From Candidatus Dojkabacteria bacterium (GTDB lineage: Bacteria; Patescibacteriota; Dojkabacteria; J137): a stretch of 58,497 nucleotides of DNA. Positions 5,598 through 58,303 of the stretch are shown here, piece after piece; position 1 is the first letter of the stretch, and every line of letters begins with the position of its first letter. The DNA lies in contig JANWZV010000001.1 of assembly GCA_025061805.1 (NCBI GenBank), positions 1 through 58,497 on the forward strand, in the 5' to 3' direction. Made by a program: the position numbers and the translations under genes. The notes under the pieces are model-generated. The model was not told where the DNA came from. It made no database searches and saw only the letters and a program-made list of their open reading frames with translations.

Positions 5598-5600
5598 CCG

Positions 5601-5610: not shown

Positions 5611-5626
5611 TTATGACAAATATAAA

Positions 5627-5636
5627 ATAAATATTT
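5627..5636 (+). promoter_or_regulatory. ATAAATATTT box, 4 nt upstream of the portal ATG at 5641
   Basis: Exact 10-mer, back to back with the 5601-5610 box of the divergent gene. Confidence 0.35.
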
Positions 5637-5640
5637 GAAA

Positions 5641-8827: not shown

Positions 8828-9250
8828 ATGAAAGAAATCATAAAAATAAAAGAAGATATAGAAAAAATAGAAAGAAATTCAAACAACAACTTGATTGTTA
8901 AGGATGTTTTGAAACAATTTAAAGAAAGATTGAACAAGATTTTTAACGAGTATGTTTTTTACAATTCTTATTATGAAAATGAAAGAGGCGAAACCGAATA
9001 TAGATCTTGCTACGAGTGGAGCAAAAACATAAAAAATTTTAGGTTTACCTTGGGGTTTAGTTTGAATGACAATTATTATGGTGATATAGCTTTATCTATT
9101 GATTTTATAGATGAAAACGGGAATAATCATAATATCTTTTGTAAAAAGGATAGTTTTTCAAATACTAATTCAAATTTTAGTTTTAAGATAGAAGAATTTA
9201 TAAAAATCTATAAAAATAAAGTCAAAATTCTTAAATTCTTACTAAGATAA
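8828..9250 (+). CDS. Hypothetical protein
   Basis: 140-aa ORF with an ATG start. No motif recognised. Confidence 0.6.
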   Translation: MKEIIKIKEDIEKIERNSNNNLIVKDVLKQFKERLNKIFNEYVFYNSYYENERGETEYRSCYEWSKNIKNFRFTLGFSLNDNYYGDIALSIDFIDENGNNHNIFCKKDSFSNTNSNFSFKIEEFIKIYKNKVKILKFLLR

Positions 9251-9291
9251 AAATATTAAAAAAATTTTGTTTGTTTTATATCGAAAACGAT

Positions 9292-9582
9292 TTTCGCGCT
9301 TATTGCTTTTAGTCGCCGGATACGATATGAGCAACATTCAAAAGTGACTCGCTGTCACGCTGAACTGCTTACTGCAGTCGCGGCAGCGCCAGAATATGGC
9401 GCGTCTTTTGCCCGGCGTGGTGTTGTCCACGGAACCGCAACGGTTGCAAACGTAGCCATGCAGTCAGCGCACCAATTTCAGATGCGAGCGGCATGCGTTG
9501 TTGGTGCTGAATTTTCGCAGTAAGACGCGCAGTTTTATGGCTCGATATATAACCGTTATTGTGATTAAAAGCAATATATACC
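9292..9582 (-). mobile_element. GC-rich MITE-like element, copy 1: relic of an IS1595-family 5' end (zinc ribbon only) with imperfect terminal inverted repeats
   Basis: The core is 69/120 G+C (9361-9480, hand count) against AT-rich flanks. It is colinear with 51859-52156. Inverted repeats are 9300-9314 TTATTGCTTTTAGTC versus the reverse complement of 9563-9577, ATATTGCTTTTAATC (13/15). The minus-strand peptide is given under the pseudogene feature. Confidence 0.6.
9341..9538 (-). pseudogene. Decayed N-terminal zinc-ribbon fragment of an IS1595/ISXO2-type transposase
   Basis: The minus frame reads IKLRVLLRKFSTNNACRSHLKLVR*LHGYVCNRCGSVDNTTPGKRRAIFWRCRDCSKQFSVTASHF*. ATA sits at the start position (9536-9538). 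TGA sits at the conserved Trp position (9464-9466). The stop at 9338-9340 comes right after the ribbon, and no DDE domain follows. Confidence 0.6.
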
Positions 9583-9614
9583 AAATGTTTTTATCGAAAA
9601 TAAAAAAAGATATA

Positions 9615-10562
9615 TTAATTATCTAATGCTTGAATCATTTGGACCAAAATAGCCGAAAGATTTATTTCTGGATCAGCTACTATACTGTGATTTTTCATGC
9701 CTTCTAACAACAGTACCAAAGCCATTGCTTTTTTTTCGAAACTATTGAAACCTAATTTTTCCAAATTATTGTAGATAAATCTGAAAAATATTACATAATC
9801 GTTTTCTGATAAAAGATTTCCTATCAAATTTCTCCCTTCTTCTATTTTTTTATTCTTGAAACAATAAAAAATTCTAAAAAATTCTTCGTTTTCTTGTTCA
9901 TTTTTTATGTTTTTTAATGTTTTTCCGTCCCAGTTTTTTTGCAAATTGTTTATGATTTTTCTTAGATCTGGCCAAAATTTATTTACGTATTCACTTATGT
10001 TTGTAATTAGGTTTTCATCCAATTTTGCTCCTTCATTCAGAAGTATTTCTGCTGCTCTTTTTATACAATATTCTTTATCAAGAGATTTGAAGTTAAAATG
10101 TTGAAATCTGCTTTTCAGTGGAGGTATTATTTTGTTGCTGTAGTTTCCTGTTAAAATAAATCTACATATAGATACATAACTTTCTATTACGTTTCTTAGA
10201 GATAATTGGGCAGTTTGAGTCAATGAATCCGCCTCATCCAAAAGAATATACTTGAAATTTCCCATAGGCATGGTAGAAGCAAAGTTTATTATTATATCTC
10301 TTATGGTATCTATTCCTCTATTCGAGGAAGCATTTATAAATAAAATGTCGTTTTTGTCTATATTAAGTTCTTTGAATAGCAGTAAAGCTAAACTTGTCTT
10401 TCCTGTTCCTGGTGTTCCTGTTAGAAGCAAATTGGGAATTTGTTTATTTTTTATCCATTTGTAAACATTTTCTTTCAGTGTTTCATCGTTCCAAACGAAA
10501 TCCTCTATGGTTTTCGGTCTGTATTTTTCTACCCAAAGATAATTTTCTATCTTTTCTTTCAT
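9615..10562 (-). CDS. Clamp-loader AAA+ subunit (gp44 / RFC small-subunit-like)
   Basis: WVEKYRPKTIEDF, LLLTGTPGTGKTS (Walker A), ILLDEADSLT (Walker B) and KSRF. The start is trimmed to the ATG at 10562 (MKEKIENY), which removes the overlap with the divergent gene at 10633. Confidence 0.8.
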   Translation of the reverse strand: MKEKIENYLWVEKYRPKTIEDFVWNDETLKENVYKWIKNKQIPNLLLTGTPGTGKTSLALLLFKELNIDKNDILFINASSNRGIDTIRDIIINFASTMPMGNFKYILLDEADSLTQTAQLSLRNVIESYVSICRFILTGNYSNKIIPPLKSRFQHFNFKSLDKEYCIKRAAEILLNEGAKLDENLITNISEYVNKFWPDLRKIINNLQKNWDGKTLKNIKNEQENEEFFRIFYCFKNKKIEEGRNLIGNLLSENDYVIFFRFIYNNLEKLGFNSFEKKAMALVLLLEGMKNHSIVADPEINLSAILVQMIQALDN

Positions 10563-10632
10563 GGTTATATTTTTACTATAACATTTTACAAAATATTTTG
10601 TTTTTTTCAATAAATTATTATAAAATAATTTT

Positions 10633-11073
10633 ATGAATAAAAAAGAAAAAATAATAGAAATATTGAAGTCGGTGCATGATCCGGAAATTCCTATCAATAT
10701 ATATGATTTAGGATTAATTTATAATTTGTCTATAGAAGATGACAAAATAGACATTCTTATGACTTTAACTTCTCCAAATTGTCCTTCTGCGCAGGAAATT
10801 CCTGAAGAAATTGTAACTAAATTAAATTCAGAGTTTCCTGAAATGAAAATAAATATCAATATGACTTGGAACCCGCCATGGGATAAATCCAGAATGTCAG
10901 AAGAAGCAAGATTGGCATTGGATATGTTTGATTTAGAAATTCCATATCATCCGCCATATATCTATGATAATGATTTTATGTTTATCGATATACAAGATAT
11001 AGATGAAAACGAAATAGGTCAAAATTTTGAAGAAAATGTCTTTAATTTTGAAAGTGATAAATCAGACGAATAA
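10633..11073 (+). CDS. DUF59 / MIP18-family Fe-S cluster assembly protein (SufT/PaaD-like) with an acidic C-terminal extension
   Basis: VHDPEIPINIYDLGLIY ... LTSPNCP is the canonical DUF59 motif. Confidence 0.75.
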   Translation: MNKKEKIIEILKSVHDPEIPINIYDLGLIYNLSIEDDKIDILMTLTSPNCPSAQEIPEEIVTKLNSEFPEMKININMTWNPPWDKSRMSEEARLALDMFDLEIPYHPPYIYDNDFMFIDIQDIDENEIGQNFEENVFNFESDKSDE

Positions 11074-14838: not shown

Positions 14839-14841
14839 CCA

Positions 14842-14851
14842 AAATATTTAT
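14842..14851 (-). promoter_or_regulatory. ATAAATATTT box, 3 nt upstream of the start at 14838
   Basis: The plus strand reads AAATATTTAT. The spacer on the coding strand is TGG. Confidence 0.35.
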
Positions 14852-14877
14852 GTATTATTTTTTATTTTTATACGCAA

Positions 14878-18554: not shown

Positions 18555-18572
18555 ATCTCGAAAAAAAGTCAA

Positions 18573-18582
18573 ATAAATATTT
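18573..18582 (+). promoter_or_regulatory. ATAAATATTT box, 3 nt upstream of the ATG at 18586
   Basis: Exact 10-mer. Confidence 0.35.
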
Positions 18583-18585
18583 TTA

Positions 18586-34081: not shown

Positions 34082-34168
34082 GCGGGAATGGCGGAACTGG
34101 CAGACGCGACAGACTCAAAATCTGTTGATCGAAAGATCGTGGGGGTTCAAGTCCCCCTTCCCGCACCA
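34082..34168 (+). tRNA. tRNA-Leu (anticodon CAA), type II with a long variable arm and an encoded CCA
   Basis: Hand-folded. Acceptor gcgggaa/ttcccgc. D stem gcg/cgc. Anticodon stem acaga/tctgt with loop ctCAAaa. Variable arm gatc-gaaa-gatc. T stem ggggg/ccccc with loop ttcaagt. The 3' end is ACCA. Confidence 0.9.
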
Positions 34169-36625: not shown

Positions 36626-36679
36626 AATATTAGCGCGATTTGTTGTTGATGTCTTTTAAAAAACAGTATTTTTTTGATA

Positions 36680-36689
36680 ATAAATATTT
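36680..36689 (+). promoter_or_regulatory. ATAAATATTT box, 10 nt upstream of the giant-ORF ATG at 36700
   Basis: Exact 10-mer. Confidence 0.35.
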
Positions 36690-36699
36690 TTTATAAAAA

Positions 36700-42600: not shown

Positions 42601-45600
42601 TTTTTCGATATAACAGAAAATGAATTGAAAGGAGAAAATTGGCCAAATCAAGGAAGAGATTTTGTTCTAAGAATAAAATTCATAGAAACCAATGATGAGT
42701 TTATTTCGGTAAAGAATAAGTTATGGAAAATAAGACAAGAAGAAGATTATCCATTTTATGAAGATTATGAGTCTTCTTATAAATCCGTGGACAATGTTGA
42801 TTTCAGATTCATCCCGAATGCCGGATTTGTTCTAGAAAATGAAACAAATTATTCAGATTTTTACATCAATGATATCTTAAAGCCTATTGATTTTGAAAAT
42901 TTAGAAACTTTTACGCCTGATCTTTTGAATAATGTTCCTGTTTTTAGACCCGACGAGACTTTATGGATTTATTCTTCTCCTGGCAGCAATTCTTATTTCA
43001 ATGAAAATTATTTGGGAGATTGGACTGTTGCAAGAGTAGTCGATCAAAATTTCAAAATACATGCATACTTGGAAAGCGACCCTTCATTCAATTGTCCTTT
43101 GGTTGTCAATTCCATACCAAATGATTATGTCCAATATATCGGAAACGGTTCAAATACGACATTTTTGATACCTTTTATTTTCTATAAAAACTCAGATTTG
43201 GTTGTTTTGATAAACGGAAAAATATTAGATAATACCAATTATAATATAGTAGGAAACAATATAATATTCAATACTGCTCCTACAAACAATGCCAGAATAG
43301 AAATATCTAGAAAAGGACTTTGGATATATCAAACAGATGGAAGATTTAAAGGCTGGACTCAAGTTTTTTATTCAGGAAAATTCAATTTCAACCGTTTTGT
43401 TTCTATAGGGGAAGAACTTAAAAAAGATGTCAATATTGCCGATTATGTCATAGTTGCTTCGGGAATAGAATGTTTTAGATTTGGTTCTTTGGGTCAAAAT
43501 TATGTTCCAGGTGATATTCTTACGCTTTCAGGTGGTACTCTTGCTCCTGGAGGTAATCCGGCTACATTTAGAGTTAATAACGTATATACTACTTATGTTT
43601 CCTCTGTTTCTGTATTGTCCGGCGGTTCTGGATATCCACCTAACCAAACCTTCAATAACGTCAGATTAATAGGAGGACAGGGGGCCGAGGCACTTGTAAA
43701 TGTCACTACTGATGCCTTTGGATCTGTCTCTACTGTCTCGATATCAGGCAACAATTACGGTTCATATCAAGTCAATCCTCTTGGAAATATATGTACTTTG
43801 GATTTAACTCCTGGATCCGGCGCACAGATATTGGTGACAATGCAAGCATATACTTATGCAAACACGATAACGTTAGTTAACGGTGGAACCGGTTATTCGA
43901 TAGACGATGTTCTCGAAATAGTCGAGTCTTCTTCTTATTCCCTTGAACAAATAAGAATTGCTGTAACGGAAGTAGATCAATTCGGGTCGATAACAAAATT
44001 CCAGATAGTTTCTAGGGGTCAATTTATACCTTCTACTTTTCTTCCACAACCACTGTCTACGAATGTTGTGGCTCCTCCTTTCTCTAATGGATCCGGAGCT
44101 ACTTTCAATGTCACTTATGGAAATAATCCTCACGTTTTAAGAGATATAGATATTATTTTCCCGGGAAATTATATATCTGTTTCTACTTCGGTACCATATG
44201 CTCTTACGGGCGGTTCTGGCACAGGCGCTTCTGTTTTCGTGGAAATAAAGGAAGAAGGGTTTTTGATAGGATATGAAGAAAAGGTAAAACCAGGAGATTG
44301 GTTGGTATTTATTTCCAGAAAATGGCAGAGAACAGTTCCCAATCTCACGGATTATATAGTTATCAAGGCATCTAATTTGGAATTGGAATTCTTTGATCCG
44401 AATATTTTATCCAATTTGGTTCCAATAGATTTTTATACCTTAAGAGAAATAAAATTTGATACATACAACGATGTTTTGACAAATTATGTTTTGCCCAATA
44501 ATAATTCTAAAGCGTTTGTTTTGAATCTTAATTCGTTTTTGAACAATAATCTCAATTTATGGGGAGTTTTGAGATATAATGGAACGAATTGGTTGTTAGA
44601 TAGGGCACAGAATAAAAGAGTAAGGCATGATAGATATATATCTGGATTCATTTATGATAAAAATCAAAATATTGTAATTTCGGATGTTGAATATTATGAT
44701 CCTTATAATGGAAGATTATTAAGCGACATAAGAGAAAATGTAGATATATTTTCTGATGAAGATCCTGCTATTTATGGACAAGAAAGAAATTCTTGGCTTT
44801 ATGACAAAGTTGGTACTATTTGGTGGAATCTAAAAGAATATAGAATATTGGATTATGAACAATCCGATTCTTCGTATAGAAGAAAAAATTGGGGAAAACC
44901 AGTAAAAAACAGCAAAATAGAAGTATATGAATGGATAAGAAGTGACTTAAAACCGACAGAATTCAAAAATAGGCTAGAATCTTTCACAGAAAGAGATTTG
45001 TTTCCAGGAGAACCAGTATTCGAAGACAAATTCAACGAATCTTTTGAATTTGATCCCATTTTCAATAGGAGTATCAAGTATTACTATTTCTGGGTAAGAA
45101 AAAGACAAATAGTGAACGATAAGAAAAAATTAAGTATTAAACAAATTTCAGACTTGATAAACAACCCGAATATTTCTTTAAAGCCCTGGTTTGCAGGTAT
45201 ATCCAAAGATGGAATGATAATTTATGAACCAGGAAATGTATTAAGTGATGATACGATATTTCAGATAATATATACCAAAAACGAAAAAACAAAAGATTAT
45301 AATAATCATACACAATGGGTTTTGGTTCCTGAAAAAAGCGATACTTTCGATATTCCAAAAAGGCTTCTCAACAAATTGAGAGATTCTTTATGTGGTTTTG
45401 ACGATTATGGCGAAAAGAAAGAATTGTTCGAAACAAAAAGAAAAATATTGGATAATGTGACTATTTTGAATTCTGGTTCTGGTTATAACAACGGAAATTT
45501 CATTGCTACGGTTTCAGGTGGAACATTTATTGTTCCTGCAACGCTTAGTGTAACAGTAAGTGGCGGTCAAGTTGTTTCTTGTTCCATACTTAATCCAGGA

Positions 45601-48600
45601 TTATATTTGGTTCCTCCTCCTTCTCCTGTTTCCGTGACTGGTATACCAGGGGGTTCTGGAGCTTTATTTAATGTTTTGTTTTTAGAATTAAACAATCAAT
45701 ATGACATATGGATACCAAAATTAGTTCCTGATGAAAATTTAAGCGATGTGGAAAAATATGGAAATTTAATAAGACCAAGGCAGACATGGTTCAAAAACGT
45801 TTGTAAGGCCAGAAAAGAATATGTAGAAGTCATAAATTATATTTTGGGAAAATTGAATCTTTATAAAGATAGGCCTAATTGGGATTTAGGTATCAATCAA
45901 TCCGAGCCATATCCATTTGATATAAACAATCCTTTACCGAATCAAAAAGTAGTATCAGATTCCTTCGATTTATATAATAAAATCATAACAAATCAAATAG
46001 TATTAAATGATATCATTTTGATGCTTGGTAATCAGAATACAAAAGGTTTTTGGACACTTTGGAAATATGAGCAGAGTGGTTTAAAATTATTGGATTACCA
46101 AAAATATAATACTGTTGATTTTTATGAAATCATAGATTGGTATTCGCCTGAAGTGGATAAAAACAATGTTCCGATTATAATTTATCAAGATAATTTAGAA
46201 AGAGATTCTAAAACTGATACTTCTTTGCTCAATAAAATTGTAAAAGTAGAAAATGACGGATCAAATAAATGGGCATGGTATAAATTAAAAATCAACGAAT
46301 TAAATAATTTTTATTGGGAATTGGTTGCAAGAGAAAAATCGACAATTAAATTATCATCTAAATTCTACGAAAATTGCGGAAATATATTCGGTTTGTTTTT
46401 CAACAAAAATTACAATTCTTTTATTTATGGATTAAATTGGGATGAATTCGATTGGGACACATTTGAGTGGGATCCAATAAAGATAAATGTTCAGAATTCT
46501 ATGATTGGATTCGGCAAAGAGGTAGATAAAAGGAGTGGGATTTTAGAATTAAGAATTCTATTTGAATATTTAAACAACAATGTTTTGGATTTATCAGAAA
46601 TAAATTTGATGTTTTTCACGATGGTCAGGTTTGCTCATACTGAGCATAGTTATATTGATTGGGCATTCAAGACTAGTTTAGTAGATGTAGTTGGGTTCAA
46701 TCAAGAATTAAAACAAGATGCGATTATATATTTTGATATCAGCAAGAGCTTTTTGGATTTCTTCGATGAAGCAAAACCATATCATGTTAAGATAAAGGAT
46801 TTTATAAAATCTTTTTCTTTTGTGGATATTGCTAATTTTTATGTTACTGATTTCGATAAACCCGTATTTTTCGATATCGAAACAAAGGAATATAGAGTTT
46901 TGTCTGTTTTTGACCCCAATGATATTAAAATATTCGAAAGTCCTAAAAATCCAGGATTATTTTTCAATTTCTTGTTTTTGAATTTGTTCCTTAACAATCC
47001 AAGACAATCGCAGAGTTTTATTGTTTCTAACGTAAATCAGATTGTTTTTACTCTTCCTTTGGATATAATTGATGCTTCTTTGGTGGAAGTAAAAGTCAAT
47101 AATATATTGAAAACAATAAATGTGGATTTTTATGTCTCTCAAAACAATATAATATTCTTATATCCATTGAGCATAGGAGATGTCGTGGATGTAATAGAAA
47201 GACAGATACCTAAAGGATTACAAGGATTGGTTACTTCCAAAAATATATGGAATGACTGGTATTCTAATTACCTCGATAATCCAGAGTTAATAAGAACCTT
47301 AAAAATAAAAATTCTTTTTGATAGATTGTCTTGTATAGATTCCAATACACAATTCTTCTGGGATGAATTTGATTGGGATACAATAGTTTGGGATAATGCT
47401 CAAACATTGGTAAATCCTAATATAACAGATACTGTTTTCATCAATCTAAGCAATGGTGTTCAGATTTATGATTTGTCTTCGATTGTTCAAATAGATCAAA
47501 TATTGTGGCATCCTTATAATTTTTCTGAAATATATTACATTCATAACAATAATGAATCATTACTTCAAGATGATGATTATCAATTGTTTTATTTAGATTT
47601 GTATAATTTTACTGGAAATGGAACAAATACAACTTTTTCGGTCAATACGAAACAAAATATAACACCGCCTGTAATACAGGTTTTCGTTAATGGCGTGTTG
47701 CAAAATTACGTCACTGATTATGTTTTGGTTGGCAAAAATGTTGTTTTCAATGTTCCTCCACCAAATAATTCGATTATTTTAGTAAAAATATTGCCTAGAA
47801 TTATTCTAAACTTCTCTCCTTCCACTGGATCTTCTCTAAAGATAAAAAGAACTCTTGAATCTATGGAAAGAATATTGAAATATTATATTAATAAGGAAGG
47901 AAAGAAGTCAAAAATAGAAAAAAGATTGATACCGAGATGTGATTTTTACGGAACTGTAATAGAAGGCGAAGGTTTTGTAAAAAGTTTTGATTGGGATATG
48001 TTTGATTGGGATATTCCAGGATCTTGGGATGTTTCAACTATTTCTACTCTTTATTTTAATGATTTGATTTTGAGTGGTGGACAATTTTATGATAGTTATG
48101 ATTTCACTGGTGATGGTTCTACTTTATTGTTTTCTTTGAATCCGCCTCCTTCTGTTTTACCAAATACGAATACAAATAGTATAGTTTTTATAAATGGTGT
48201 CCTACAACAACCAAACATAGATTATTCTTTCTTTGGTAATAGCATAGTTTTCACGTTGCCTCCTCCCAATAATTCCGAAATAAAAGTTATAATAGCTCCG
48301 TTCTTACCGGCAAATACCAATATTTGGGATATAGTTGTAGATGGATACGAATTTGTCTCTCCATTATACGGACCCAATCAACCGGAGGAAAGAGTGAAAA
48401 TAAAGCCAAGATCGCCTGTAATAATGAAAACATTTACCGAATATTCTTTTGGTGATTTTCCGATTGAAATAATAAGACTGGAAGGTAATGCATCATCCAA
48501 TTTCGTGGAATTCAAGACATATCCTCAATCTATTGAAAGTATAATGGTATTTTATAATGAAAATCTCATTTTACCGCCTTTGTGGAATTTAGATTATTTG

Positions 48601-50694
48601 AATAAAAGAATAAACTTTTCGTTTGTTCCTCAGAATGGAGAAAAAATAGAAGTTCTTATATTCAATTGGGCGGGCACTGCCAAGAAAATAGCACAATATT
48701 CTAATTTCGGAACTACTAGTTCTAAATCTTTCGTTTATCCATCTGTGATATCGAATGTTTTATCTTATGTTACACTAAACGGCAATTTATTGAGTAATGT
48801 TTCTTCTTCTGTGTCGTCTGTAGTCAATAATACCACATCATGGAATGTTAATTTGAATGCAACTTATACTGGTTTGATAGATATCAATTCGTTCGATATT
48901 TCCAATGGTGAACAGGTTTATTTAATGAGAAGGGACGTTTTTATTGCCAATGGCGGCGTTCAGGCATTCAATATTTCACAAAACATAAACTTAAATGGAA
49001 ATTATTCTCAACTTTTCGTTTTCAAGAACGGAAAGAAAATAAGCGGCCCTATAATGAATTTTGGTATAGGCGATGGCATAAATGATGTTTTTCCGCTTTC
49101 TTATCCGGTTATAAATCCATCGGATGTCACTGTTTTCGTGGATAATGTTCTTATGGTACAAGGCGTAGATTATGAAGTTGGCAATATACCTCCCCCGCCA
49201 CCGCCAACAAATAAAACCGCAATTCAATTTTATCCCGGATCCATTCCTTCTCCGGGACAATTGGTTAAAATCATAACCAACAAGAACTATCATTATCAAT
49301 TCTTCTCTCCGAATCAAATAATTTTCAATGATCCTAATAATTTACTACTTCCGGGCGATGAAATCGTTGTATACTCTATTTCTAATTACGGGGATTCTAG
49401 TATCAAAAAAGAATCTTTTATCGGACAGAATCCTGCCATTTATCCTTTGTTCCAAACACCAATCACACCGAATCATGTAAATGTTTATGTGAATGGAAAA
49501 GAAAAAATATTAGGTTCTGATTATCTTTTGAATAATGATGGATTAGGGTGGGATTTGTTCTTTTGGGATCTTTTCTATACTTGGGATAATTCTCAATACA
49601 ACATACTGATTTTCAAGGATTTACATGTAGAATCAATAAATTTCACAGGCGATGGCGTAACTACGAATTTCTCCTTATCTTCTTTTGTTGATTTTCCTGT
49701 AGAAAGCATAGATGATTATTTGACCGTATATGTCAATGGTATTCTTCAAGAAAATAGTGTCGATTATAATATTGTTTTCATATCTCCGAACTTTTTTGTT
49801 TCTTTCTTAACTCCACCACCAAATAATTCTGTCATAACCATAAATTCTCATGCAAAAGTGGAAGCAATAACGTGGAATGATAGAATAGCAAAAGAGCCGA
49901 TATATTTCTTATGTTTTTCTGAAACAAGCAATAAAGAAAAAAATCCAAAAGATTGGGTATATTATAGGATAGATGAAGATCAAAGAATGAATCTTAGAGT
50001 CAGTTTGTTGCCCAATAATAATATTATTCTTATAAACGGAAATAAAAATATACCCATTCAATGGAGAGATAATAATGTTATAGATCAAGGATATTCATTA
50101 GATACATTTGGTAATAAAAAATATAATCCAGGTTTGATTTTAGTAGGAGAAGAATTGATTTCTTACGAAAAATTCGATTATGATACTATAAACGATGTTT
50201 ATATTTTAGAAGATCTTGTAAGATCAAAATATCAAACAGCTTTTGGCATAGAATATAAGACCATATCTGCTTCATATGCCGGAAACGGAAATCAAACGAT
50301 TTTTGCGACTCCTTCGTCAAGCTTTTTCAAGGTTTTCGTTGAGATTATAGAATTCGAATATGATTCATATGCAAATGATTTTAAACCCAAGAAAATAAAA
50401 ACTCTTAGGGAAAATATCGATTACACTGTCGCGACAAATACCATTATATTCACCAATCCACCACCTCTGCCTCAATCTGTTTCTTATCCTGTCAATATAA
50501 TAGTGACTTGTTTGATATATGATTGGACCAATTATAATTCTAGTCATTTGGGCGGAACAGAAGTCATTGCGCTACCAGAAAAATCAAGATTTAAAGAACA
50601 ATTTACGATAAATTGGGCAGATAATAAAGGACTACAATATAATGATACTTCTTTGACGAAGTTCTTGTTAGAGAATAAGGTTTTTATCATTTAA
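36700..50694 (+). CDS. Giant (4664 aa) modular virion structural/fibre-like protein
   Basis: Uninterrupted 13,995-nt ORF. It is built from at least 10 copies of an F/Y-x-G-D/N-G...F...V.VNG......DY......I.F...P module known from phage fibre N-termini, several G-G-S-G-Y modules and five W-D-rich motifs. Confidence 0.6.
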   Translation: MSEENKKVINLLPSTYKTRFLENLFTNSFDNLFDKGNSEFLDGFIGKITSYYEKNSQNYIKEKDINRTIYQFEPIVISKNGNNENFSLFYECFLNSIKLNGGFIENQNRLFENYYYSWCPPIDIDKFMNFKEYFWLKDGPTFRYAGYKIHEYVSNGTDTIYNFDLPYINQNEIIVTVDDVLQNLGVDYVIQNRSVVFNTSPPVDSKIKIISYKIIGYEIYVSDGVNKKYKVPLICKKKEDIIVFINNILTTSGFSIVEENGEFYVIFDNPVIVGSNIEIIVYKILNVLEDILGRKHIKDINGYYYSSNMKIVFSYNVFPSVYNSGEWIIEGVGREIRLAFDGTGSSLTSGWDLFLWDSIAWDNDLFVNFYPLSALIKSDIPEYETIERTSLNNNPWSRTNRWFHYDVLTPEDRKKAIQAKRPIIEFERDLELYNYGRYFRGFVDLVINDMKDPINSFLNALNVNKINPYCISAISINSPGSGYTNLGGNGEVVCNVVGGTGTAAQVKVTLTSGQVTAVQLVTKGEYTTIPVGPVTVDTLVGGSGASFNVEYNEINTSFFIKSLVWPNSYLGESEIFYGNIKIKDGMRILVLNSNTSDKNKVFKVSGIAGLGSPNLLLETDGILTNGDPFEGEILYVKDGIFKENEFYFDGISWNISQIKNFGNPPLFQLYDADPINNYGVKLNDSVRYPNSDFNGNKIFSYAEGEGKKDKVLNKKLKYDKNGEIVFVFNLVTDRYQYSDGEIKGFYFYNKLGKTKEKDEFYNSWHRKNKKSKQNYYNRLISDVDGIKIFEVNWKINKIEEIYINGKKVNYTYLIDTNKTIINLQNLLEKNDIIEIISVYDEDSRNGNFEIPQNLSKNPNFEEVTFLSKTNYGIHFNENIQENLSTVKFVNPGQYYSKNKYRDSEKNWSFGEQIIQNEESILKASLIFSKSELNIFDSIDYLSREYNRFFNKFIQKLNYFYTENILNQLDPPGKWVEEILKELNKNKTNDFPFYRSLFGDINNFIPPSLSYLGILQTYYPIKFIDTSLQEPLEFILCHDGSLIKSFGDFRDDVILELEIFLYNSIESKFKNENLFEFSIFDVLPGKWRKTDYNMNEINSILSRYFEIWCLQNNISYRNNVTYSADNYWSFNFRNAKSTLGDVLNGSWRAIYHYYYDTDRPHLFPWEMLGFSEKPGWWDSEYGPPPYTSLNLKLWEDLRDGRIRNGPRKGIDKRFARPELLKILPVDELGNLLNPFEAKIFDNSVLSNDFSEDWKFGDYGPVENAWRRTKFYRFDLLKLLLLTKPLKSVELFWDTKNIKRIYNDKEKTNQLVNILYKSRPKHELYQVFGERNDVLGLQNIITHYLEKDSKDIKTFYGDFIRNLNVKLGYRFGSFINSEFLSVFSETYGFLPKEDINVFLYESIPFKETFYSGILVRNLGNNIFQVFGYDVLDPNFKIIKGSSSGRKKDISIFLNNNILPKKWNPNTEYNVGDYVYYENDAYKAIKAHKSSKNFEDDLNKWKLHSDTVENIFFVVNKKLDVEKEQITKFGYGSIIFGIQDLVDFIFDYERYLLREGWIFDEYVFNEETGEGVIFDFEYSVKELLKWIISEPPVNSIFAISPFSKKARFKTDFGYIKSINDYLKSRYSILNRDGSIVNTENFIIFRLNDFFEIEAKELSEVNNIYGLRLLLNSFEHAFYVNNKTIFGDIIFDPLYNQRQNRLKISTFRTKNWNGRVTSPGFIITENTIKPNFDKSADNFRRFFDLNNQVEDKKLRDYANHNIAYQSRSYLRNLILSDTSQIDFYRGLIRQKGSSNSITKILRSNYISNFANFKFYENWAFRIGEFGNYDEKNKIEISYPVSLKKSDVQYFKFDIINKDTWKTLIDISTGDYDIEIYGEKLKKLDLDSKNDDIIYVYDFKSKKYKVQNDSLIQPIIINGGSNFEPNKNFLVIYDTKYADKTAKFLLSSNSSGQISSVVLYEEGEYKSVDTIGFFDITENELKGENWPNQGRDFVLRIKFIETNDEFISVKNKLWKIRQEEDYPFYEDYESSYKSVDNVDFRFIPNAGFVLENETNYSDFYINDILKPIDFENLETFTPDLLNNVPVFRPDETLWIYSSPGSNSYFNENYLGDWTVARVVDQNFKIHAYLESDPSFNCPLVVNSIPNDYVQYIGNGSNTTFLIPFIFYKNSDLVVLINGKILDNTNYNIVGNNIIFNTAPTNNARIEISRKGLWIYQTDGRFKGWTQVFYSGKFNFNRFVSIGEELKKDVNIADYVIVASGIECFRFGSLGQNYVPGDILTLSGGTLAPGGNPATFRVNNVYTTYVSSVSVLSGGSGYPPNQTFNNVRLIGGQGAEALVNVTTDAFGSVSTVSISGNNYGSYQVNPLGNICTLDLTPGSGAQILVTMQAYTYANTITLVNGGTGYSIDDVLEIVESSSYSLEQIRIAVTEVDQFGSITKFQIVSRGQFIPSTFLPQPLSTNVVAPPFSNGSGATFNVTYGNNPHVLRDIDIIFPGNYISVSTSVPYALTGGSGTGASVFVEIKEEGFLIGYEEKVKPGDWLVFISRKWQRTVPNLTDYIVIKASNLELEFFDPNILSNLVPIDFYTLREIKFDTYNDVLTNYVLPNNNSKAFVLNLNSFLNNNLNLWGVLRYNGTNWLLDRAQNKRVRHDRYISGFIYDKNQNIVISDVEYYDPYNGRLLSDIRENVDIFSDEDPAIYGQERNSWLYDKVGTIWWNLKEYRILDYEQSDSSYRRKNWGKPVKNSKIEVYEWIRSDLKPTEFKNRLESFTERDLFPGEPVFEDKFNESFEFDPIFNRSIKYYYFWVRKRQIVNDKKKLSIKQISDLINNPNISLKPWFAGISKDGMIIYEPGNVLSDDTIFQIIYTKNEKTKDYNNHTQWVLVPEKSDTFDIPKRLLNKLRDSLCGFDDYGEKKELFETKRKILDNVTILNSGSGYNNGNFIATVSGGTFIVPATLSVTVSGGQVVSCSILNPGLYLVPPPSPVSVTGIPGGSGALFNVLFLELNNQYDIWIPKLVPDENLSDVEKYGNLIRPRQTWFKNVCKARKEYVEVINYILGKLNLYKDRPNWDLGINQSEPYPFDINNPLPNQKVVSDSFDLYNKIITNQIVLNDIILMLGNQNTKGFWTLWKYEQSGLKLLDYQKYNTVDFYEIIDWYSPEVDKNNVPIIIYQDNLERDSKTDTSLLNKIVKVENDGSNKWAWYKLKINELNNFYWELVAREKSTIKLSSKFYENCGNIFGLFFNKNYNSFIYGLNWDEFDWDTFEWDPIKINVQNSMIGFGKEVDKRSGILELRILFEYLNNNVLDLSEINLMFFTMVRFAHTEHSYIDWAFKTSLVDVVGFNQELKQDAIIYFDISKSFLDFFDEAKPYHVKIKDFIKSFSFVDIANFYVTDFDKPVFFDIETKEYRVLSVFDPNDIKIFESPKNPGLFFNFLFLNLFLNNPRQSQSFIVSNVNQIVFTLPLDIIDASLVEVKVNNILKTINVDFYVSQNNIIFLYPLSIGDVVDVIERQIPKGLQGLVTSKNIWNDWYSNYLDNPELIRTLKIKILFDRLSCIDSNTQFFWDEFDWDTIVWDNAQTLVNPNITDTVFINLSNGVQIYDLSSIVQIDQILWHPYNFSEIYYIHNNNESLLQDDDYQLFYLDLYNFTGNGTNTTFSVNTKQNITPPVIQVFVNGVLQNYVTDYVLVGKNVVFNVPPPNNSIILVKILPRIILNFSPSTGSSLKIKRTLESMERILKYYINKEGKKSKIEKRLIPRCDFYGTVIEGEGFVKSFDWDMFDWDIPGSWDVSTISTLYFNDLILSGGQFYDSYDFTGDGSTLLFSLNPPPSVLPNTNTNSIVFINGVLQQPNIDYSFFGNSIVFTLPPPNNSEIKVIIAPFLPANTNIWDIVVDGYEFVSPLYGPNQPEERVKIKPRSPVIMKTFTEYSFGDFPIEIIRLEGNASSNFVEFKTYPQSIESIMVFYNENLILPPLWNLDYLNKRINFSFVPQNGEKIEVLIFNWAGTAKKIAQYSNFGTTSSKSFVYPSVISNVLSYVTLNGNLLSNVSSSVSSVVNNTTSWNVNLNATYTGLIDINSFDISNGEQVYLMRRDVFIANGGVQAFNISQNINLNGNYSQLFVFKNGKKISGPIMNFGIGDGINDVFPLSYPVINPSDVTVFVDNVLMVQGVDYEVGNIPPPPPPTNKTAIQFYPGSIPSPGQLVKIITNKNYHYQFFSPNQIIFNDPNNLLLPGDEIVVYSISNYGDSSIKKESFIGQNPAIYPLFQTPITPNHVNVYVNGKEKILGSDYLLNNDGLGWDLFFWDLFYTWDNSQYNILIFKDLHVESINFTGDGVTTNFSLSSFVDFPVESIDDYLTVYVNGILQENSVDYNIVFISPNFFVSFLTPPPNNSVITINSHAKVEAITWNDRIAKEPIYFLCFSETSNKEKNPKDWVYYRIDEDQRMNLRVSLLPNNNIILINGNKNIPIQWRDNNVIDQGYSLDTFGNKKYNPGLILVGEELISYEKFDYDTINDVYILEDLVRSKYQTAFGIEYKTISASYAGNGNQTIFATPSSSFFKVFVEIIEFEYDSYANDFKPKKIKTLRENIDYTVATNTIIFTNPPPLPQSVSYPVNIIVTCLIYDWTNYNSSHLGGTEVIALPEKSRFKEQFTINWADNKGLQYNDTSLTKFLLENKVFII

Positions 50695-51234
50695 GTAATT
50701 TAAAAAACTAGTTTTAAATTTCATGAATCTTTGATTGAAAATTTTATATTTTTTATTCCAATGATTCGAGTCATAATAATAAGATAAATTTTTATAATTG
50801 TATTCTCCCAATAATTTTTCCAGGCATAGTTCTTTTTCAAAAGATTTTATAAACCATGCGCTTATGTTACAGGATTTGACATCTAAATAAAAAACAGAAC
50901 AGGAATTTTCTATGAATTTTTTTATATTTTTTGTATTTTTTAGATTTTCTTCGAAAAATTCCATAGAAGTCAATAAACCATCTTCTAATTCTTGGGTATT
51001 TCTGTAGTATTCTAGAAAATTCAGCAAAAAGTTTTTGTTTTTCCAGTTATTGAACAATATTTTTTTGGATTTCATGTACTTCAGATAATTTTTTATTGTA
51101 TAAAAGGAATTTATGTTGTTTTCTATGAAAAACAAAGATAAAGAATTTATGTCTTTTATATATTTTTCTTTTTCGTTTTCTTTAAGATATAAGATGTTTT
51201 CTATCCAATAACTTATTTTTTCTATTTTTTTCAT
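50668..51234 (-). CDS. Hypothetical protein
   Basis: 188-aa ORF. It converges on the giant ORF and overlaps its end by 27 nt. Confidence 0.55.
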   Translation of the reverse strand: MKKIEKISYWIENILYLKENEKEKYIKDINSLSLFFIENNINSFYTIKNYLKYMKSKKILFNNWKNKNFLLNFLEYYRNTQELEDGLLTSMEFFEENLKNTKNIKKFIENSCSVFYLDVKSCNISAWFIKSFEKELCLEKLLGEYNYKNLSYYYDSNHWNKKYKIFNQRFMKFKTSFLNYLNDKNLIL

Positions 51235-51857
51235 ATTGAATTGTTTTTTCTCAATTCTTCAATTTCTTGTATTATCATTTTTTGTATATTTTTATCATTT
51301 ATTCCGAAAAATTCAAACAATTCATAATCTTCGTGTTTAGAAAGAAAAGTTTTCAAAAACAAGAGTAATTCTTCTTTAGAAGATAAGATTTTCGATTCTT
51401 TCAATAATGTCAATATTTTTAATTCTTTTTCTTTTTTATTGAAATTTATCCATCTTTTGTATGTTTTATTTTTTGGACATAGACAAATCATTAAGCTGAA
51501 TACAATATCTCTAAAATCTTCTTCTGAAGTTCTTGTACTTAATATTATGTTTTTATTGATCATATCATTTAGTAAAATTAAATTACGTATGTATTTTTTG
51601 TTTTCTAGGTTTGTTGGATTTGATAACCATTTTTGCAAAACTATTAATATTTCTAAAATATTTTCTTTTTTTTCTTCATCTATGGTATCAAGATAATATA
51701 TATCTTTTTTTGTTCTCATTATTTCGAACAATTCCCATATGTTCGTTTCATATTTTTTATTTTCGTCATTAGTTTCTTCAATATTGGATATTTTTTCAAA
51801 ATTTTTTTCTTTATCGTTGAATTTGAAAAATTCTTCGTTATTTTCTAATGTTTTCAT
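51231..51857 (-). CDS. Hypothetical protein
   Basis: 208-aa ORF. Its ATG (51855-51857) overlaps the stop of the zinc-ribbon ORF of GC-rich element copy 2. Confidence 0.6.
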   Translation of the reverse strand: MKTLENNEEFFKFNDKEKNFEKISNIEETNDENKKYETNIWELFEIMRTKKDIYYLDTIDEEKKENILEILIVLQKWLSNPTNLENKKYIRNLILLNDMINKNIILSTRTSEEDFRDIVFSLMICLCPKNKTYKRWINFNKKEKELKILTLLKESKILSSKEELLLFLKTFLSKHEDYELFEFFGINDKNIQKMIIQEIEELRKNNSI

Positions 51858-52096
51858 GTTTCGTGCTTATTATTTTCAGTCGTAAGACGCAACATGAACA
51901 ACGTTCGGAAGTGACCCATCGTGACGCTGAACTGCTTGCCGCATGCGCGGCAGCGCCAGAATTCGATGGGTTCTTTGACCGATGTGGCGTTGTCCATAGA
52001 TCCGCAACGGTAGCAAGCGGAGCCGATGCGGCCAGCACACCGATTCCAGGTGCGAGCGGCAGGCGTTGTTGGTGCTGAATTTTCGTAATAAGGCAC
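51854..52096 (-). CDS. 80-aa four-Cys zinc-ribbon ORF inside element copy 2; possibly expressed, status uncertain
   Basis: MPYYENSAPTTPAARTWNRCAGRIGSACYRCGSMDNATSVKEPIEFWRCRACGKQFSVTMGHF... has an intact CxxC...CxxC pair. Its TGA stop forms ATGA with the start of 51231..51857. Confidence 0.35.
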   Translation of the reverse strand: MPYYENSAPTTPAARTWNRCAGRIGSACYRCGSMDNATSVKEPIEFWRCRACGKQFSVTMGHFRTLFMLRLTTENNKHET

Positions 52097-52156
52097 GCAG
52101 CTTCATGGCTCAATGTATACATATAGCCGATATTGTGATTAAAAGCAATATATACC
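51859..52156 (-). mobile_element. GC-rich MITE-like element, copy 2 (IS1595-type zinc-ribbon relic)
   Basis: Colinear with 9292-9582, about three quarters identical. Inverted repeats are 51867-51881 TTATTATTTTCAGTC versus the reverse complement of 52137-52151, ATATTGCTTTTAATC (10/15). Confidence 0.6.
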
Positions 52157-52218: not shown

Positions 52219-53100
52219 ATGGGAAGACCATTATCTGATAAATTCTTTGGTATATTCGATAGAAAAGTAGGACCGCAAGTATATCTGGATTCAGTTTGGA
52301 TACCTGGAGAACCTGCTCCATCTGGTTCTGGTTATATCATTTCTCAATCAGGAACAAGAAAATACATTGCAAGAAGCACAAATACAGGAGCAGAAGGTGT
52401 TGTTAGATTGGTAAATTCTTCATTAACCGAAAGTGGCCAAGCACTTTTGACAGTTTATCCAAAACTTTCGACAACCGGCGTTGGATTTTCTCTTCTTCCT
52501 GGAAATACTTTCTGGGTAAATTTCGCAAAAGTAGTAAATAAAGGCTCCAATTACTCAGTTGGAGATGTTTTGACCGTGTCTGGTGGAACATTTACAACAC
52601 CGGCAACTTTGACAGTAACACAAGTTTCTTCTTTGGGAGAAATAGAAAATTTCAATTTGACAACACAAGGAGATTATACAGTTATACCGACAAATATAAA
52701 TGATAATCCAGTTACTGGCGGTTTAGGTTCAGGGGCGACTTTTAAATTAGATTTTGGTGTCAATTCAGTGAGCTTCAGTGGAGGTTCTGGATTTCCAAAT
52801 GGAACATCATCTTTCGTTGCAGTCGTGAGACAACAAAACGGGAAAGGTTTTGGTACAATACTTATGGGTGATGTTTCTGGTGGTACCGTAACTACTCTAT
52901 ATGTTGCTTCTTCTGGTCATGGATATACTTCAGATGCTCCATCTTCTTTGGAAGTCGTGAGTTTTTATTCGGTCGGGCCACAAGAATTTGTCAAAACATT
53001 GACTGCAAAAAAAGTAAAAACATTCAACAACAAAACTTATATTTGGAATCCGCTTGGATTGGCAAATTATCCAAATAGTTGTTTGCTTTTGACCAGATAA
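52219..53100 (+). CDS. Structural protein built from the same G-G-S-G-Y/F modules as the giant ORF
   Basis: The strong SD ataggaggt precedes the ATG. VSGGTFTTPATLTVTQV...GGLGSGATFKLDF and SGGSGFPNG...SSGHGYTSD parallel modules in 36700..50694. Confidence 0.55.
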   Translation: MGRPLSDKFFGIFDRKVGPQVYLDSVWIPGEPAPSGSGYIISQSGTRKYIARSTNTGAEGVVRLVNSSLTESGQALLTVYPKLSTTGVGFSLLPGNTFWVNFAKVVNKGSNYSVGDVLTVSGGTFTTPATLTVTQVSSLGEIENFNLTTQGDYTVIPTNINDNPVTGGLGSGATFKLDFGVNSVSFSGGSGFPNGTSSFVAVVRQQNGKGFGTILMGDVSGGTVTTLYVASSGHGYTSDAPSSLEVVSFYSVGPQEFVKTLTAKKVKTFNNKTYIWNPLGLANYPNSCLLLTR

Positions 53101-55946: not shown

Positions 55947-56750
55947 TCAGTTTTTGTTTAGTAAATGAAAGTCATTGAAAATTTTGATTTTATTTTCTTT
56001 ATTATTTAATATTGCAAATTTTTCGTTTATATTATCGATAGAATACGGTTGAAAATAATGATAGATTTCGAAAGGAAGAATAAATTCTTCTATAGGAATT
56101 TTTAAATTGTTGGATAGCAAAAATAAGGATAAAGAAAGAATCTTATCGAATCTTAACACATGATTGTTTTTGAATACATTATTGTCATTTATCATTTTTT
56201 TCTCGTTTGTTTCTTCATAAATAGTTTTTATGTTTTTCCAAAAATATTCTGAAATTTCATTTTTTTCCCAAAATAGTATAGTTCCATAAAAATAATGAAA
56301 ACCGTAAATCGACATATACAATTCTTCACTTCTAAAAAATTTTTTATTTTTGTTATTGAATATATTGTTATAACAAGCTTTTATATTTTGAAAACTTTTC
56401 AAGATTTTGTCTAAAAAATTGGAAAACACAAAATAATCACAATCTATAAGACATGTTTTATTAAAAGGAGTCAAATCATTGGAATATATTCTACATAAAT
56501 TAAACCACTTTTTGTTTTCTCTTAAATATTGTGCTTTTATTTTGTTTTGTTGTAACAAAACACAACTCGCGTTTTTTCTATTTCTTATGATTTTTGATAT
56601 TTCTTCATAATTTTCATCGTTAGTGACAATAACTAAAGGAGAATTTATGTAACATGTGTAATTTACGTAAAATTTCTTAAAAATGTTCAGATATTTTTTA
56701 CTGTTTACTTCGTCTATAACATATGTCATAAATCCATAATCTTTGTTCAT
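55947..56750 (-). CDS. Glycosyltransferase-like protein (GT8-like, DxD)
   Basis: YGFMTYVIDE..., CLIDCDYFVF. Confidence 0.4.
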   Translation of the reverse strand: MNKDYGFMTYVIDEVNSKKYLNIFKKFYVNYTCYINSPLVIVTNDENYEEISKIIRNRKNASCVLLQQNKIKAQYLRENKKWFNLCRIYSNDLTPFNKTCLIDCDYFVFSNFLDKILKSFQNIKACYNNIFNNKNKKFFRSEELYMSIYGFHYFYGTILFWEKNEISEYFWKNIKTIYEETNEKKMINDNNVFKNNHVLRFDKILSLSLFLLSNNLKIPIEEFILPFEIYHYFQPYSIDNINEKFAILNNKENKIKIFNDFHLLNKN

Positions 56751-56752
56751 TT

Positions 56753-57280
56753 TTATTTCGAATCTTCTTCTTTGTTGTTGTTTGAATCATCATTTTCGAA
56801 ATCATCGTTTTCATCGTCTTCTTGGGAAACATCTTCAATGATGTCTTTCAGATTTTCTTTGAGAGATTCCAACGTATCCACATACTTGGTATAATAATTG
56901 AAACAAATATTTTGATAGTATGTGTTGAAATACAACCAAAGATTCTTTGGATTTTTTACCAAAACTGGATTATCATAATGATCGAATATTATTATATTTT
57001 TATTCAATCTTTGTGAATATAAATAATTCAACAATTCGGTCGTCAGTAAGAATAATCTATTGTTCCATATTATGAATTTACTTTCTTCAAATTCTTTTTT
57101 CAATTCTTCTAGTGATTTTCTTTCATCGAAATATTTTCTTAATTTTAATGTATTTTTTATGTTTTCTCTTATGTTTAGGTCTATGTAAGAAAAAGTGCTA
57201 ATGGTCTCAATAGCGTTTTCTATATCGTTTTTCAATGATTTTTTTTTGTTTATCTTGTCTTCTTTATTCGTTTCAGTCAT
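56753..57280 (-). CDS. Hypothetical protein with an acidic C-terminal tail
   Basis: 175-aa ORF ending QEDDENDDFENDDSNNNKEEDSK. Confidence 0.55.
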   Translation of the reverse strand: MTETNKEDKINKKKSLKNDIENAIETISTFSYIDLNIRENIKNTLKLRKYFDERKSLEELKKEFEESKFIIWNNRLFLLTTELLNYLYSQRLNKNIIIFDHYDNPVLVKNPKNLWLYFNTYYQNICFNYYTKYVDTLESLKENLKDIIEDVSQEDDENDDFENDDSNNNKEEDSK

Positions 57281-57284
57281 TTTG

Positions 57285-57294
57285 AAATATTTAT
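57285..57294 (-). promoter_or_regulatory. ATAAATATTT box, 4 nt upstream of the start at 57280
   Basis: The plus strand reads AAATATTTAT. Confidence 0.35.
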
Positions 57295-57298
57295 TTTG

Positions 57299-58303
57299 TT
57301 AAAAATCGTAATTGTATTTCAGTGTTTCTCTGAATTCAGAAATTTTTTGACATTTTTTATCGTTTGTCATATCTAAAAAAGCCTGTTTTAGTGTTTCTAT
57401 GTTTATATTTGTGCATTCGTAATTCAAATTTTTCAAACAATCGTTATAATCATAACCATAAACCAAAAGATCATTGACACAAGATTTACAACCTTCGGGC
57501 AAAACAACCCATACATCGTCCCCAAAAATACCGTTTCTCCAAAATAGAGAATGAAAAATATTAGTATAAGTACAAATGCATAATATTTTTTTATCAGTAA
57601 GACCAGACAACTGTATTAATCCTCCTGTTACTCCGACGATATATTTACATTTTTGCATTATTGATAATGTTTCTTCGATTGTTATTTCTCCTACAAAACT
57701 TATTAAATTTTCATTTTTTATTTCCGGAATAACCTTTTTTGAAGAAAATTTTTCATTGATGTTTTTATGATCTTGGCTTTTTTCTCCTCCTACGAGAATT
57801 ACCGAATGTCCTAATTCGAAAAGAAAATTGATAAATTTTTTTAGTACGTCGCTGTTCCATTTTTTTGAATGAGAACGATAAGATACCGGAATTACAACAG
57901 AATTTTCCAAATTTATGTTTAAAGTTTTTTGTTTTATTTTATCCGATAAAACCTTGTTTTTCCATTTCCACAAACTTAAATACTTTTCTTCTATTATTTT
58001 TCCGAAAAAACTTAATGAACTGAAAATACTAAGATTTGTTCTAGGAACAAAATACTCATTTGGAAATATTTTTTTTATGGAAACCCATGGTGCCCAAGAA
58101 ACGAGTTCTTCGAATGGATGAATATACTTTTCGCTTATCCAATCCCTTATCAAAAAATCATATTGTGGAGGACAAGATACCCTGAAATTTTCTTCAAATA
58201 TATTTTCTATACCCCATTTTAAAACAGGCAAACTCATGATAGAATCACCTAATCCACCGTTTATCACGATATGAAAAAAATTTTTATATCCTAATAAATT
58301 CAT
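57299..58303 (-). CDS. Glycosyltransferase family 9 (heptosyltransferase-like)
   Basis: HIVINGGLGDSIMSLPVLK (GT9 N-terminal GLGD motif), VILVGGEKSQD and VGVTGGLIQLSGL. Confidence 0.6.
   Translation of the reverse strand: MNLLGYKNFFHIVINGGLGDSIMSLPVLKWGIENIFEENFRVSCPPQYDFLIRDWISEKYIHPFEELVSWAPWVSIKKIFPNEYFVPRTNLSIFSSLSFFGKIIEEKYLSLWKWKNKVLSDKIKQKTLNINLENSVVIPVSYRSHSKKWNSDVLKKFINFLFELGHSVILVGGEKSQDHKNINEKFSSKKVIPEIKNENLISFVGEITIEETLSIMQKCKYIVGVTGGLIQLSGLTDKKILCICTYTNIFHSLFWRNGIFGDDVWVVLPEGCKSCVNDLLVYGYDYNDCLKNLNYECTNINIETLKQAFLDMTNDKKCQKISEFRETLKYNYDF

Follow-up and report, generated by a model that had tools for sequence, protein, structure and literature searches.

Two GC-rich islands in an AT-rich phage genome

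The DNA analyzed here is a 58.5-kb stretch of AT-rich phage sequence (the window; positions 1 to 58,497 of contig JANWZV010000001.1) that averages 28.7% GC and encodes a portal protein, a clamp loader, a large terminase, and a single-strand DNA-binding protein, together with a 4664-amino-acid (aa) open reading frame (ORF) and one tRNA-Leu. Our subject is a small GC-rich island at positions 51862-52156 on the minus strand, 295 nt long with 50.8% GC, which sits between the divergent ORFs 51231..51857(-) and 52219..53100(+). A related island of 288 nt and 50.0% GC lies on the minus strand at 9295-9582. We refer to this one as copy 1 and to the island at 51862-52156 as copy 2; they are the two GC-richest 290-nt stretches in the 58.5 kb. 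As laid out below, the island is very probably a nonautonomous, internally deleted derivative of an IS1595-family insertion sequence (IS), similar to a miniature inverted-repeat transposable element (MITE), that was inserted twice in an AT-rich jumbo phage and is decaying neutrally. It is not a working zinc-ribbon gene, and it is a new instance of a documented type of element with no new mechanism.

An earlier reading made from the DNA letters alone (the sequence-only reading) had described the island as a GC-rich second copy of an element at 9292-9582, in the same orientation and 42 kb away, and had placed it between the two divergent ORFs. Our comparison agrees with this description. Separated by 42.3 kb and on the same strand, the two copies can be aligned over their full length, with 80.2% identity over ungapped columns and 78.3% over all columns, and the only indels between them are one of 6 nt and one of 1 nt. 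We searched the window for a third copy and found none. Both copies are intergenic. At about 50%, their GC content is intermediate between that of their bacterial relatives (70%) and that of the phage (29%), which would be normal for foreign DNA that is gradually being worn down.

The lesions differ between the copies. Copy 1 has ATA at the position of the start codon and two TGA codons. Its terminal inverted repeat of 14 nt (9301-9314 / 9563-9576, 93% complementary) has survived intact. Copy 2 retains the ancestral ATG (52104-52106) and the Trp codon TGG in the same columns in which copy 1 has ATA and TGA, as had been noted earlier; its own lesions are insertions of 1 nt and of 6 nt and the degradation of its right repeat. 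The single extra nucleotide is a G at 52025 (plus strand), and it is missing from copy 1 and from the related bacterial sequences L004 and L005 described below. The alignment, with ATA/TGA in one copy and a frameshift in the other, thus upholds the proposal that the two copies decayed independently. The possibility that the extra base is a sequencing error had also been raised. We consider a simple assembly error unlikely, as a second assembly of the same phage population (Logan SRR15826902_929, here L011) is identical to the window across the entire copy 2, extra base included, although the two assemblies may share one sample. Over 8786 nt, L011 differs from the window by 13 single-nucleotide polymorphisms and 0 gaps. 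We also tried recoding, in which the TGA of copy 1 at the conserved Trp would be read as Trp, and rejected it: the second TGA aligns with CGA (Arg) of copy 2, and both are simple transitions.

The coding part derives from an IS1595-type transposase

The sequence-only reading had compared the coding part of the island with the N-terminal zinc ribbon of IS1595-type transposases. Once the extra base was taken out, the peptide read from the minus strand of copy 2 matched Pfam family PF12760 (Zn_ribbon_IS1595) with 40.6 bits (E=2.5e-10), well above the cut-off of 25.4 bits, and copy 1 read through TGA scored 33.8 bits (E=3.3e-8). An exhaustive HMMER search retrieved the N-termini of IS1595-type transposases, for example P0034 (MKLRAFLRKFSTDEACRSHLESVRWPHGPVCDRCG...FWRCRACGKQFSVTAG / FWRCRACGKQFSVTAGTPMHGTHLPL), to which the repaired peptide of copy 2 aligns as MKLRALLRKFSTNNACRSHLESVCWPHGSACYRCG...FWRCRACGKQFSVTMG. 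Most of the proteins listed by this search were unrelated multi-zinc-finger proteins, and six hits were informative; a word-indexed protein search with the repaired peptide gave no candidate. The match after repair and the alignment with real transposases support the proposed origin.

Over residues 1-64, the peptide is 63% identical to its counterpart in Crenalkalicoccus roseus (L004) and 58% identical to that in a Geminicoccaceae metagenome-assembled genome (MAG) (L005). A genome scan with the repaired-peptide alignment added further relatives of about 44% identity in Acidiphilium and others. The relatives of the element are thus found in GC-rich Alphaproteobacteria. Homology to the transposases stops abruptly after the motif SVTxG, at codon 64. 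When we ran tblastn with the L005 transposase, residues 1-64 were found at both copies, and nothing else was found in the window. This search showed no DDE catalytic domain (PF12762 / NF033547) in the element, and therefore the element is not an autonomous member of the IS1595 family. The window likewise contains no full-length transposase or tnpB.

Both ends and the deletion junction match a tnpB-bearing relative

The relative that explains the rest of the island is L005, a 2214-nt contig (JAGRGG010000288.1) that has inverted repeats at both tips (GGTTCCTATTGCTTTCGTTCATGA ... TCATGACTGAAAGCAATAAGGGCG) and appears to be one whole IS. Its first protein is an IS1595 transposase (PF12760 + PF12762, NF033547) and its second is TnpB (PF01385 + PF07282, NF040570). 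The two reading frames overlap by 4 nt (transposase stop, tnpB start), and tnpB has its own stop codon within the right repeat. The same pair of transposase and tnpB is also present in L004/L013. The parent of the phage element was probably an IS1595-type DDE transposon of this kind, carrying tnpB with its stop inside the right inverted repeat. In the literature that we searched, we found no description of IS1595 and TnpB as a single unit, and this parent, which lies outside the window, is the most unusual item that we met. Elements of the parent type span L005:1-2214, L004:2958-5086, and L014:2958-3730, the last being a deletion derivative. By eye, a hairpin is visible just before the right repeat, with pairing kept through different sequences in L005 (GTCATG-GTT-CATGAC) and L014 (GTCGCC-TAC-GGTGAC).

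We set the boundaries of the element by inverted-repeat comparison with L005 and L014. At copy 2, this places the end at 51862, which is 4 nt from the start codon of the neighboring gene and not 1 nt as the sequence-only reading had it. At the left end, the ATG lies 43-44 nt from the repeat in copy 1 and in both L004 and L005; the 6 extra nucleotides of copy 2 lengthen this distance to 50 nt. On the opposite side, the distal 53 nt align with the right end of L005 and, best, with that of L014 (CACTTCCGAATGTTGC...GACTGAAAGCAATAAGCGCG), with a score that was reached in 0 of 2000 shuffles; in copy 2, the right repeat itself (51862-51883) is degraded. The positions of the features are collected in Table 1.

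Between these ends lies a junction that L005 accounts for. The exact 12-mer GTCACGGCGGGC occurs in L005 at 224 and at 2150 and is one of only three repeated 12-mers there. The occurrence at 224 corresponds to the SVTAG codons (61-64), where transposase homology ends, and the one at 2150 lies 65 nt from the right end, in the 3' end of tnpB. Both sit exactly at the junction of the phage copies. A simulated deletion of L005 between the two 12-nt repeats gives a product of 288 nt, the size of copy 1, that is colinear with both copies. L014, an IMG/VR contig, holds a 773-nt deletion derivative in which transposase codon 44 is fused into tnpB, and internal deletions thus recur in this IS lineage. 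The sequence-only reading was right about the IS1595 origin; it missed that the element is more than a piece of a gene, with both ends of the IS and a deletion junction, and it missed the tnpB of the parent.

Table 1. Features of the two islands and of the gene next to copy 2, in window coordinates
Feature	Position	Strand	Remarks
Copy 1 of the element	9295..9582	-	Between the convergent genes 8828..9250(+) and 9615..10697(-)
Left inverted repeat (IRL), GGTATATATTGCTTTTAATCAC	52135..52156	-	Same in both copies; matches the IRL of L005 (GGTTCCTATTGCTTTCGTTCAT), L004, and L014
Remnant of the transposase 5' untranslated region	52107..52134	-	6-nt insertion (~52115-52120, GTATAC) relative to copy 1
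Remnant of transposase codons 1-64 (Zn_ribbon_IS1595)	51914..52106	-	Frameshifted by the 1-nt insertion at 52025
Derived 1-nt insertion (G)	52025..52025	+	Breaks the ancestral frame; also in the second assembly, L011
Deletion junction, GTCACGATGGGT	51914..51925	-	Counterpart of the 12-nt direct repeat of L005, GTCACGGCGGGC
Right-end remnant, last ~52-53 nt of the parent IS	51862..51913	-	3' end of tnpB plus right inverted repeat (IRR)
Mechanically called 80-aa ORF	51854..52096	-	GTG start at 52096-52094; judged not to be a gene
208-aa phage gene, no assigned function	51231..51857	-	Directly downstream of copy 2 and outside the element; 100% identical to NZZ41_00200

The copies show no coding constraint

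We compared the coding columns of the two copies and found 39 differences in 191 columns, distributed as 13/12/14 over the three codon positions. Between the copies, the ratio of nonsynonymous to synonymous changes (dN/dS; Nei-Gojobori, NG86) was 0.54. Simulations of unconstrained mutation with the observed spectrum gave a median of 0.44 (5-95% range, 0.23-0.83), and the functional genes of L005 and L004 gave 0.21. Since the observed value lies within the simulated range and the differences are spread evenly over codon positions, the substitutions between the copies show no coding constraint. The changes that both copies share relative to the outgroups are distributed as 12/0/10. This avoidance of the second position is what would be expected from an earlier life as a working gene. 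Polarized with the bacterial outgroups, the changes comprise 28 from GC to AT and 2 from AT to GC, which in a neutral insert is a direct view of the mutation bias of the phage.

Alternative explanations

An 80-aa ORF in copy 2 had been put forward as an intact gene for a small zinc-ribbon protein, translationally coupled to the 208-aa gene downstream. The ORF is there, both CxxC pairs are kept, and its stop TGA (51856-51854) does overlap the ATG of the next gene (51857-51855) as ATGA; the claimed ATG start at 52096 is in fact a GTG. That GTG has no Shine-Dalgarno sequence and is out of frame, so the first ~25 residues are nonsense and the ancestral frame is reached only via the insertion. The product scores 17.4 bits against PF12760, below the cut-off, copy 1 has no equivalent ORF, and the substitutions are even over codon positions and fit the neutral simulation. 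We therefore regard a functional small protein as very improbable. Coupling is not needed to explain the layout either: the ATGA overlap arose because the insertion point of the element was 4 nt ahead of the start codon, and most genes of this phage start without a Shine-Dalgarno sequence and with an AT-rich motif upstream, so the lack of one before 51857 needs no special explanation. The same landing site would make it conceivable that the dead transposon was co-opted at copy 2 as a promoter or 5' leader of the operon of 51231..51857(-), and at copy 1 perhaps as a terminator. Copy 2 is oriented as the old transposase promoter region would be, the left ends of the two copies are identical over 26/26 nt, and two GC-to-AT changes have made the right repeat of copy 2 AAAATAATAAG, like the AT-rich motif found upstream of many genes. 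In copy 1 alone there are two terminator-like hairpins followed by T runs, at 9344-9358 (-) and 9386-9402 (+), between the convergent genes; copy 2 has none. However, a promoter scan of both strands of the element called no sigma-70-like site, the base changes are of the kind that the overall drift from GC to AT produces, and the 2 terminator-like sites compare with 0.6 +/- 0.9 in shuffled sequences; these figures do not exceed what AT drift and chance would yield. We consider co-option unlikely. On the minus strand, the left end reads TTGCTT-17-TATATG/TATATA, which to the eye resembles a sigma-70 promoter; the scan did not call it, and we do not claim it.

GC-rich islands in AT-rich genomes are often structured noncoding RNA genes, and the islands could in principle be copies of one. 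Their GC content fits, their folding z-scores were modest (-2.35 and -1.67), and RNAalifold reported 5-6 double changes that keep pairs, from two sequences only. However, Rfam 15 gave no match at gathering score in the islands (its sole hit in the window was the tRNA at 34082-34165), the minimum-free-energy structures differ between the copies, and the same number of "compensatory" pairs was obtained from both strands. The consensus had been derived from the same two sequences, which makes the control circular, and the double changes in helix 7, examined by eye, are G>A plus C>T, as the mutation bias predicts. All 288 nt are already accounted for by colinear homology to the IS, and a structured RNA gene is accordingly a highly improbable explanation. 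It would also be conceivable that two full-length IS insertions each suffered the same deletion independently and that no mini-element ever transposed. A deletion driven by microhomology could recur, and another derivative exists in L014. This scheme requires two identical events and is thus less parsimonious, and a 2.2-kb insertion would be costlier to the phage. Moreover, the copies share 22 substitutions relative to both outgroups, 11 of them from GC to AT, which is consistent with descent from one ancestor that had already become a mini-element or already resided in AT-rich DNA. We think independent deletions quite improbable. We favor a MITE-like element that was inserted twice.

A model for the origin of the islands

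The parent IS would have carried an IS1595 DDE transposase gene followed by tnpB within one pair of inverted repeats. A deletion between its two 12-nt direct repeats would have removed ~1.9 kb and left a 288-nt product made of the left repeat, the 5' untranslated region, 64 transposase codons, and the last ~53 nt with the right repeat. Lacking a transposase of its own, this mini-element was presumably moved in trans by a full-length relative in the host cell during infection and would have landed in two intergenic sites of the AT-rich jumbo phage genome. That two copies of identical structure occupy unrelated intergenic sites suggests that the mini-element itself transposed or was inserted twice from a host family. 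Both copies would then have drifted neutrally under the strong GC-to-AT pressure of the phage, each gaining different lesions, and the 80-aa ORF with its ATGA overlap would be a by-product of the landing site and the frameshift. Homology, both ends, the junction, the neutral pattern of substitutions, and the lack of a transposase in the window are direct observations; the mobilization in trans, the order of these events, and the absence of a present function are what we infer.

Several observations weigh against this model. The IS1595 family makes target-site duplications of 8 bp (ISfinder), and we found none at either copy: the flanking 8-mers differ both at copy 2 (TCATGTTT / GATATTAT) and at copy 1 (ACGATTTT / AAATGTTT). 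The sole repeat in the flanks of copy 1 is the 9-mer TATCGAAAA at 9279-9287 and 9592-9600, which is displaced from the ends by 7 and 9 nt and is too distant for a simple target-site duplication; an exact 9-mer is shared by 1.35% of random flank pairs. Decay since insertion could be the reason why no duplication is seen. We found no phage relative with an empty site among GenBank phages, in IMG/VR, or in a big protein collection. A relative of the clamp loader (L018, 40% identity) has no island after its clamp-loader gene, and because its gene order differs, this carries little weight. The protein and DNA searches brought up no close full-length relative that could be the cognate IS of the host, and the nearest relatives, at 58-63% aa identity, are in other bacteria, namely GC-rich Alphaproteobacteria, though the contig was binned as Candidatus Dojkabacteria. 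The identical runs of 26 nt (at the IRL) and 23 nt (in the coding part) are slightly longer than a rough estimate for uniform divergence of 20% would give, and some constraint or gene conversion may have acted on parts of the element. With only two copies known, tests for conserved RNA structure have almost no power.

Searches for the element elsewhere were also negative. There was no close copy in the protein or DNA collections searched, no match to the element DNA in GenBank phages in either distant or near mode, and 0 hits to its exact patterns in IMG/VR. A 20-mer metagenome scan returned three chance matches only, in tape-measure-like and purC-like genes.

Transposable elements are rare in phage genomes, and here, with unusual clarity, the parent type, the microhomology behind the deletion, and the neutral decay are all readable in the sequence. 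For annotators, the islands carry a warning: the ORFs called inside copy 2 are not genes. Besides the 80-aa ORF, the Logan assembly lists a 94-aa gene at L011:3620-3904 (minus strand of the window, 51838-52122) whose frame has nothing to do with that of the transposase, and this call is almost certainly spurious.

The phage and its host

Two proteins of the window are identical to NZZ41_00200 and NZZ41_00240 of an NCBI MAG labeled Candidatus Dojkabacteria bacterium, on a contig of 116,990 nt. The 208-aa protein next to copy 2 had no PHROG match, and in a big protein collection we found only the protein itself and one 99% variant; relatives of this protein and of the 293-aa protein on the other side were sought in IMG/VR, and none were found. 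The terminase is ~50% identical to terminases of jumbo phages of Agrobacterium, Sinorhizobium, and Pseudomonas.

The element offers a clue to the host, since its relatives are alphaproteobacterial and the terminase resembles those of these jumbo phages. At 55947-58303 (-), we observed genes of the Glyco_transf_9 (lipopolysaccharide heptosyltransferase) family, whose relatives of 62% identity are on short Logan contigs only. The heptosyltransferase genes, the terminase affinities, and the alphaproteobacterial relatives of the element together raise doubt about the Dojkabacteria bin: the element and the terminase affinities point toward Proteobacteria, while the MAG label is Dojkabacteria. Related phages such as PA5oct and Atu_ph07 are far more AT-rich than their hosts, and a GC-rich host is thus compatible with an AT-rich phage. 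It is possible, if doubtful at present, that the real host is a GC-rich alphaproteobacterium and not the binned candidate-phylum bacterium.

Other features of the window are recorded here in their own right. The portal-protein ORF at 5635-8760 (+) is 1041 aa long, ~2x the usual size. Its residues 465-539 match an HNH endonuclease, a hint that a homing element has been inserted, either as an intein or as a fused endonuclease. In the 4664-aa ORF at 36700-50694 (+), the precomputed marks were a faint Phage_T7_tail and a weak CBM_5_12 only. The third GC-richest spot of the window (~45% GC) is the 125-aa ORF at 12626-13003 (+), which is preceded by a very strong Shine-Dalgarno sequence (gggagaaggagaaacatATG) and is unrelated to the element. 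Shine-Dalgarno sequences are absent from most genes of the phage and strong at a few, for example those at 52219, 35287, and 12626. Of 43 upstream regions (the 30 nt before ORF starts), 13 contain the hexamer TAAATA, in many cases as ATAAATAT, where 0.9 would be expected. It lies mostly 12-14 nt ahead of the start codon (examples are 5598-5615, 14839-14856, 18568-18585, 36675-36699, and 57281-57300), a placement that may reflect very short leaders. The motif resembles the T4 late promoter, TATAAATA.

Comparison with known systems

As the last ~65 nt of a tnpB-bearing IS are kept (the tnpB 3' end and the right end), the element is like the nonautonomous derivatives of TnpB elements. In IS200/IS605 elements, the 3' region of tnpB and the right end encode the 3' part of the guide-RNA (omega RNA) scaffold. 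The parent of the phage element differs from IS200/IS605 in that it is bounded by DDE-type inverted repeats and not by hairpin ends, and the phage element differs from guide-RNA elements in that it holds at most a short piece of scaffold and has no tnpB in the window; in L005, Rfam gave no match. We can nevertheless imagine, as a very long shot, that transcripts running from the left end of the element through the right end, the part at which TnpB guide RNAs usually terminate, fuse a remnant of the guide scaffold to the phage flank and are used by TnpB of the host. If this were true, the flank of copy 2 in the fused RNA would be the start of the 208-aa gene, and the host TnpB would cut phage genomes without the insertion, so that the element is retained, or would target the phage itself.

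The element is also close to the IS1595 elements L005 and L004. The phage element shares with them Zn_ribbon_IS1595, at 58-63% aa identity over 64 residues, and both inverted repeats around the core TATTGCTTT, and in copy 1 the ATG is as far from the left end as it is in these relatives. It differs from them in that the PF12762 domain and the passenger tnpB are deleted, the GC content is 50% instead of 70%, and the frame is broken. Within the IS1595 family, the ISNwi1-like subgroup has ends of the form GGnnnnTAT (ISfinder classification).

Judged by its sequence, the element qualifies as a MITE: it is small, it has no functional transposase, and it is made wholly from the two ends of an autonomous IS. 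MITEs in viral genomes ("vMITEs") are documented and rare, being found in 0.01% of viral sequences (Nadal-Molero et al. 2024, PMC11602168). The phage element differs from typical MITEs in that no target-site duplication was found, that there are two copies only, both old (20% diverged) and decaying, and that no autonomous partner from the host of the phage came up in the searches. It resembles MITEs and vMITEs in several respects: it is 288-295 nt long, has no working transposase, resides in a virus genome, carries terminal inverted repeats with homologs in an autonomous IS, and occurs twice, with the same boundaries, at intergenic sites that are unrelated and whose flanks show no convincing homology beyond the ends.

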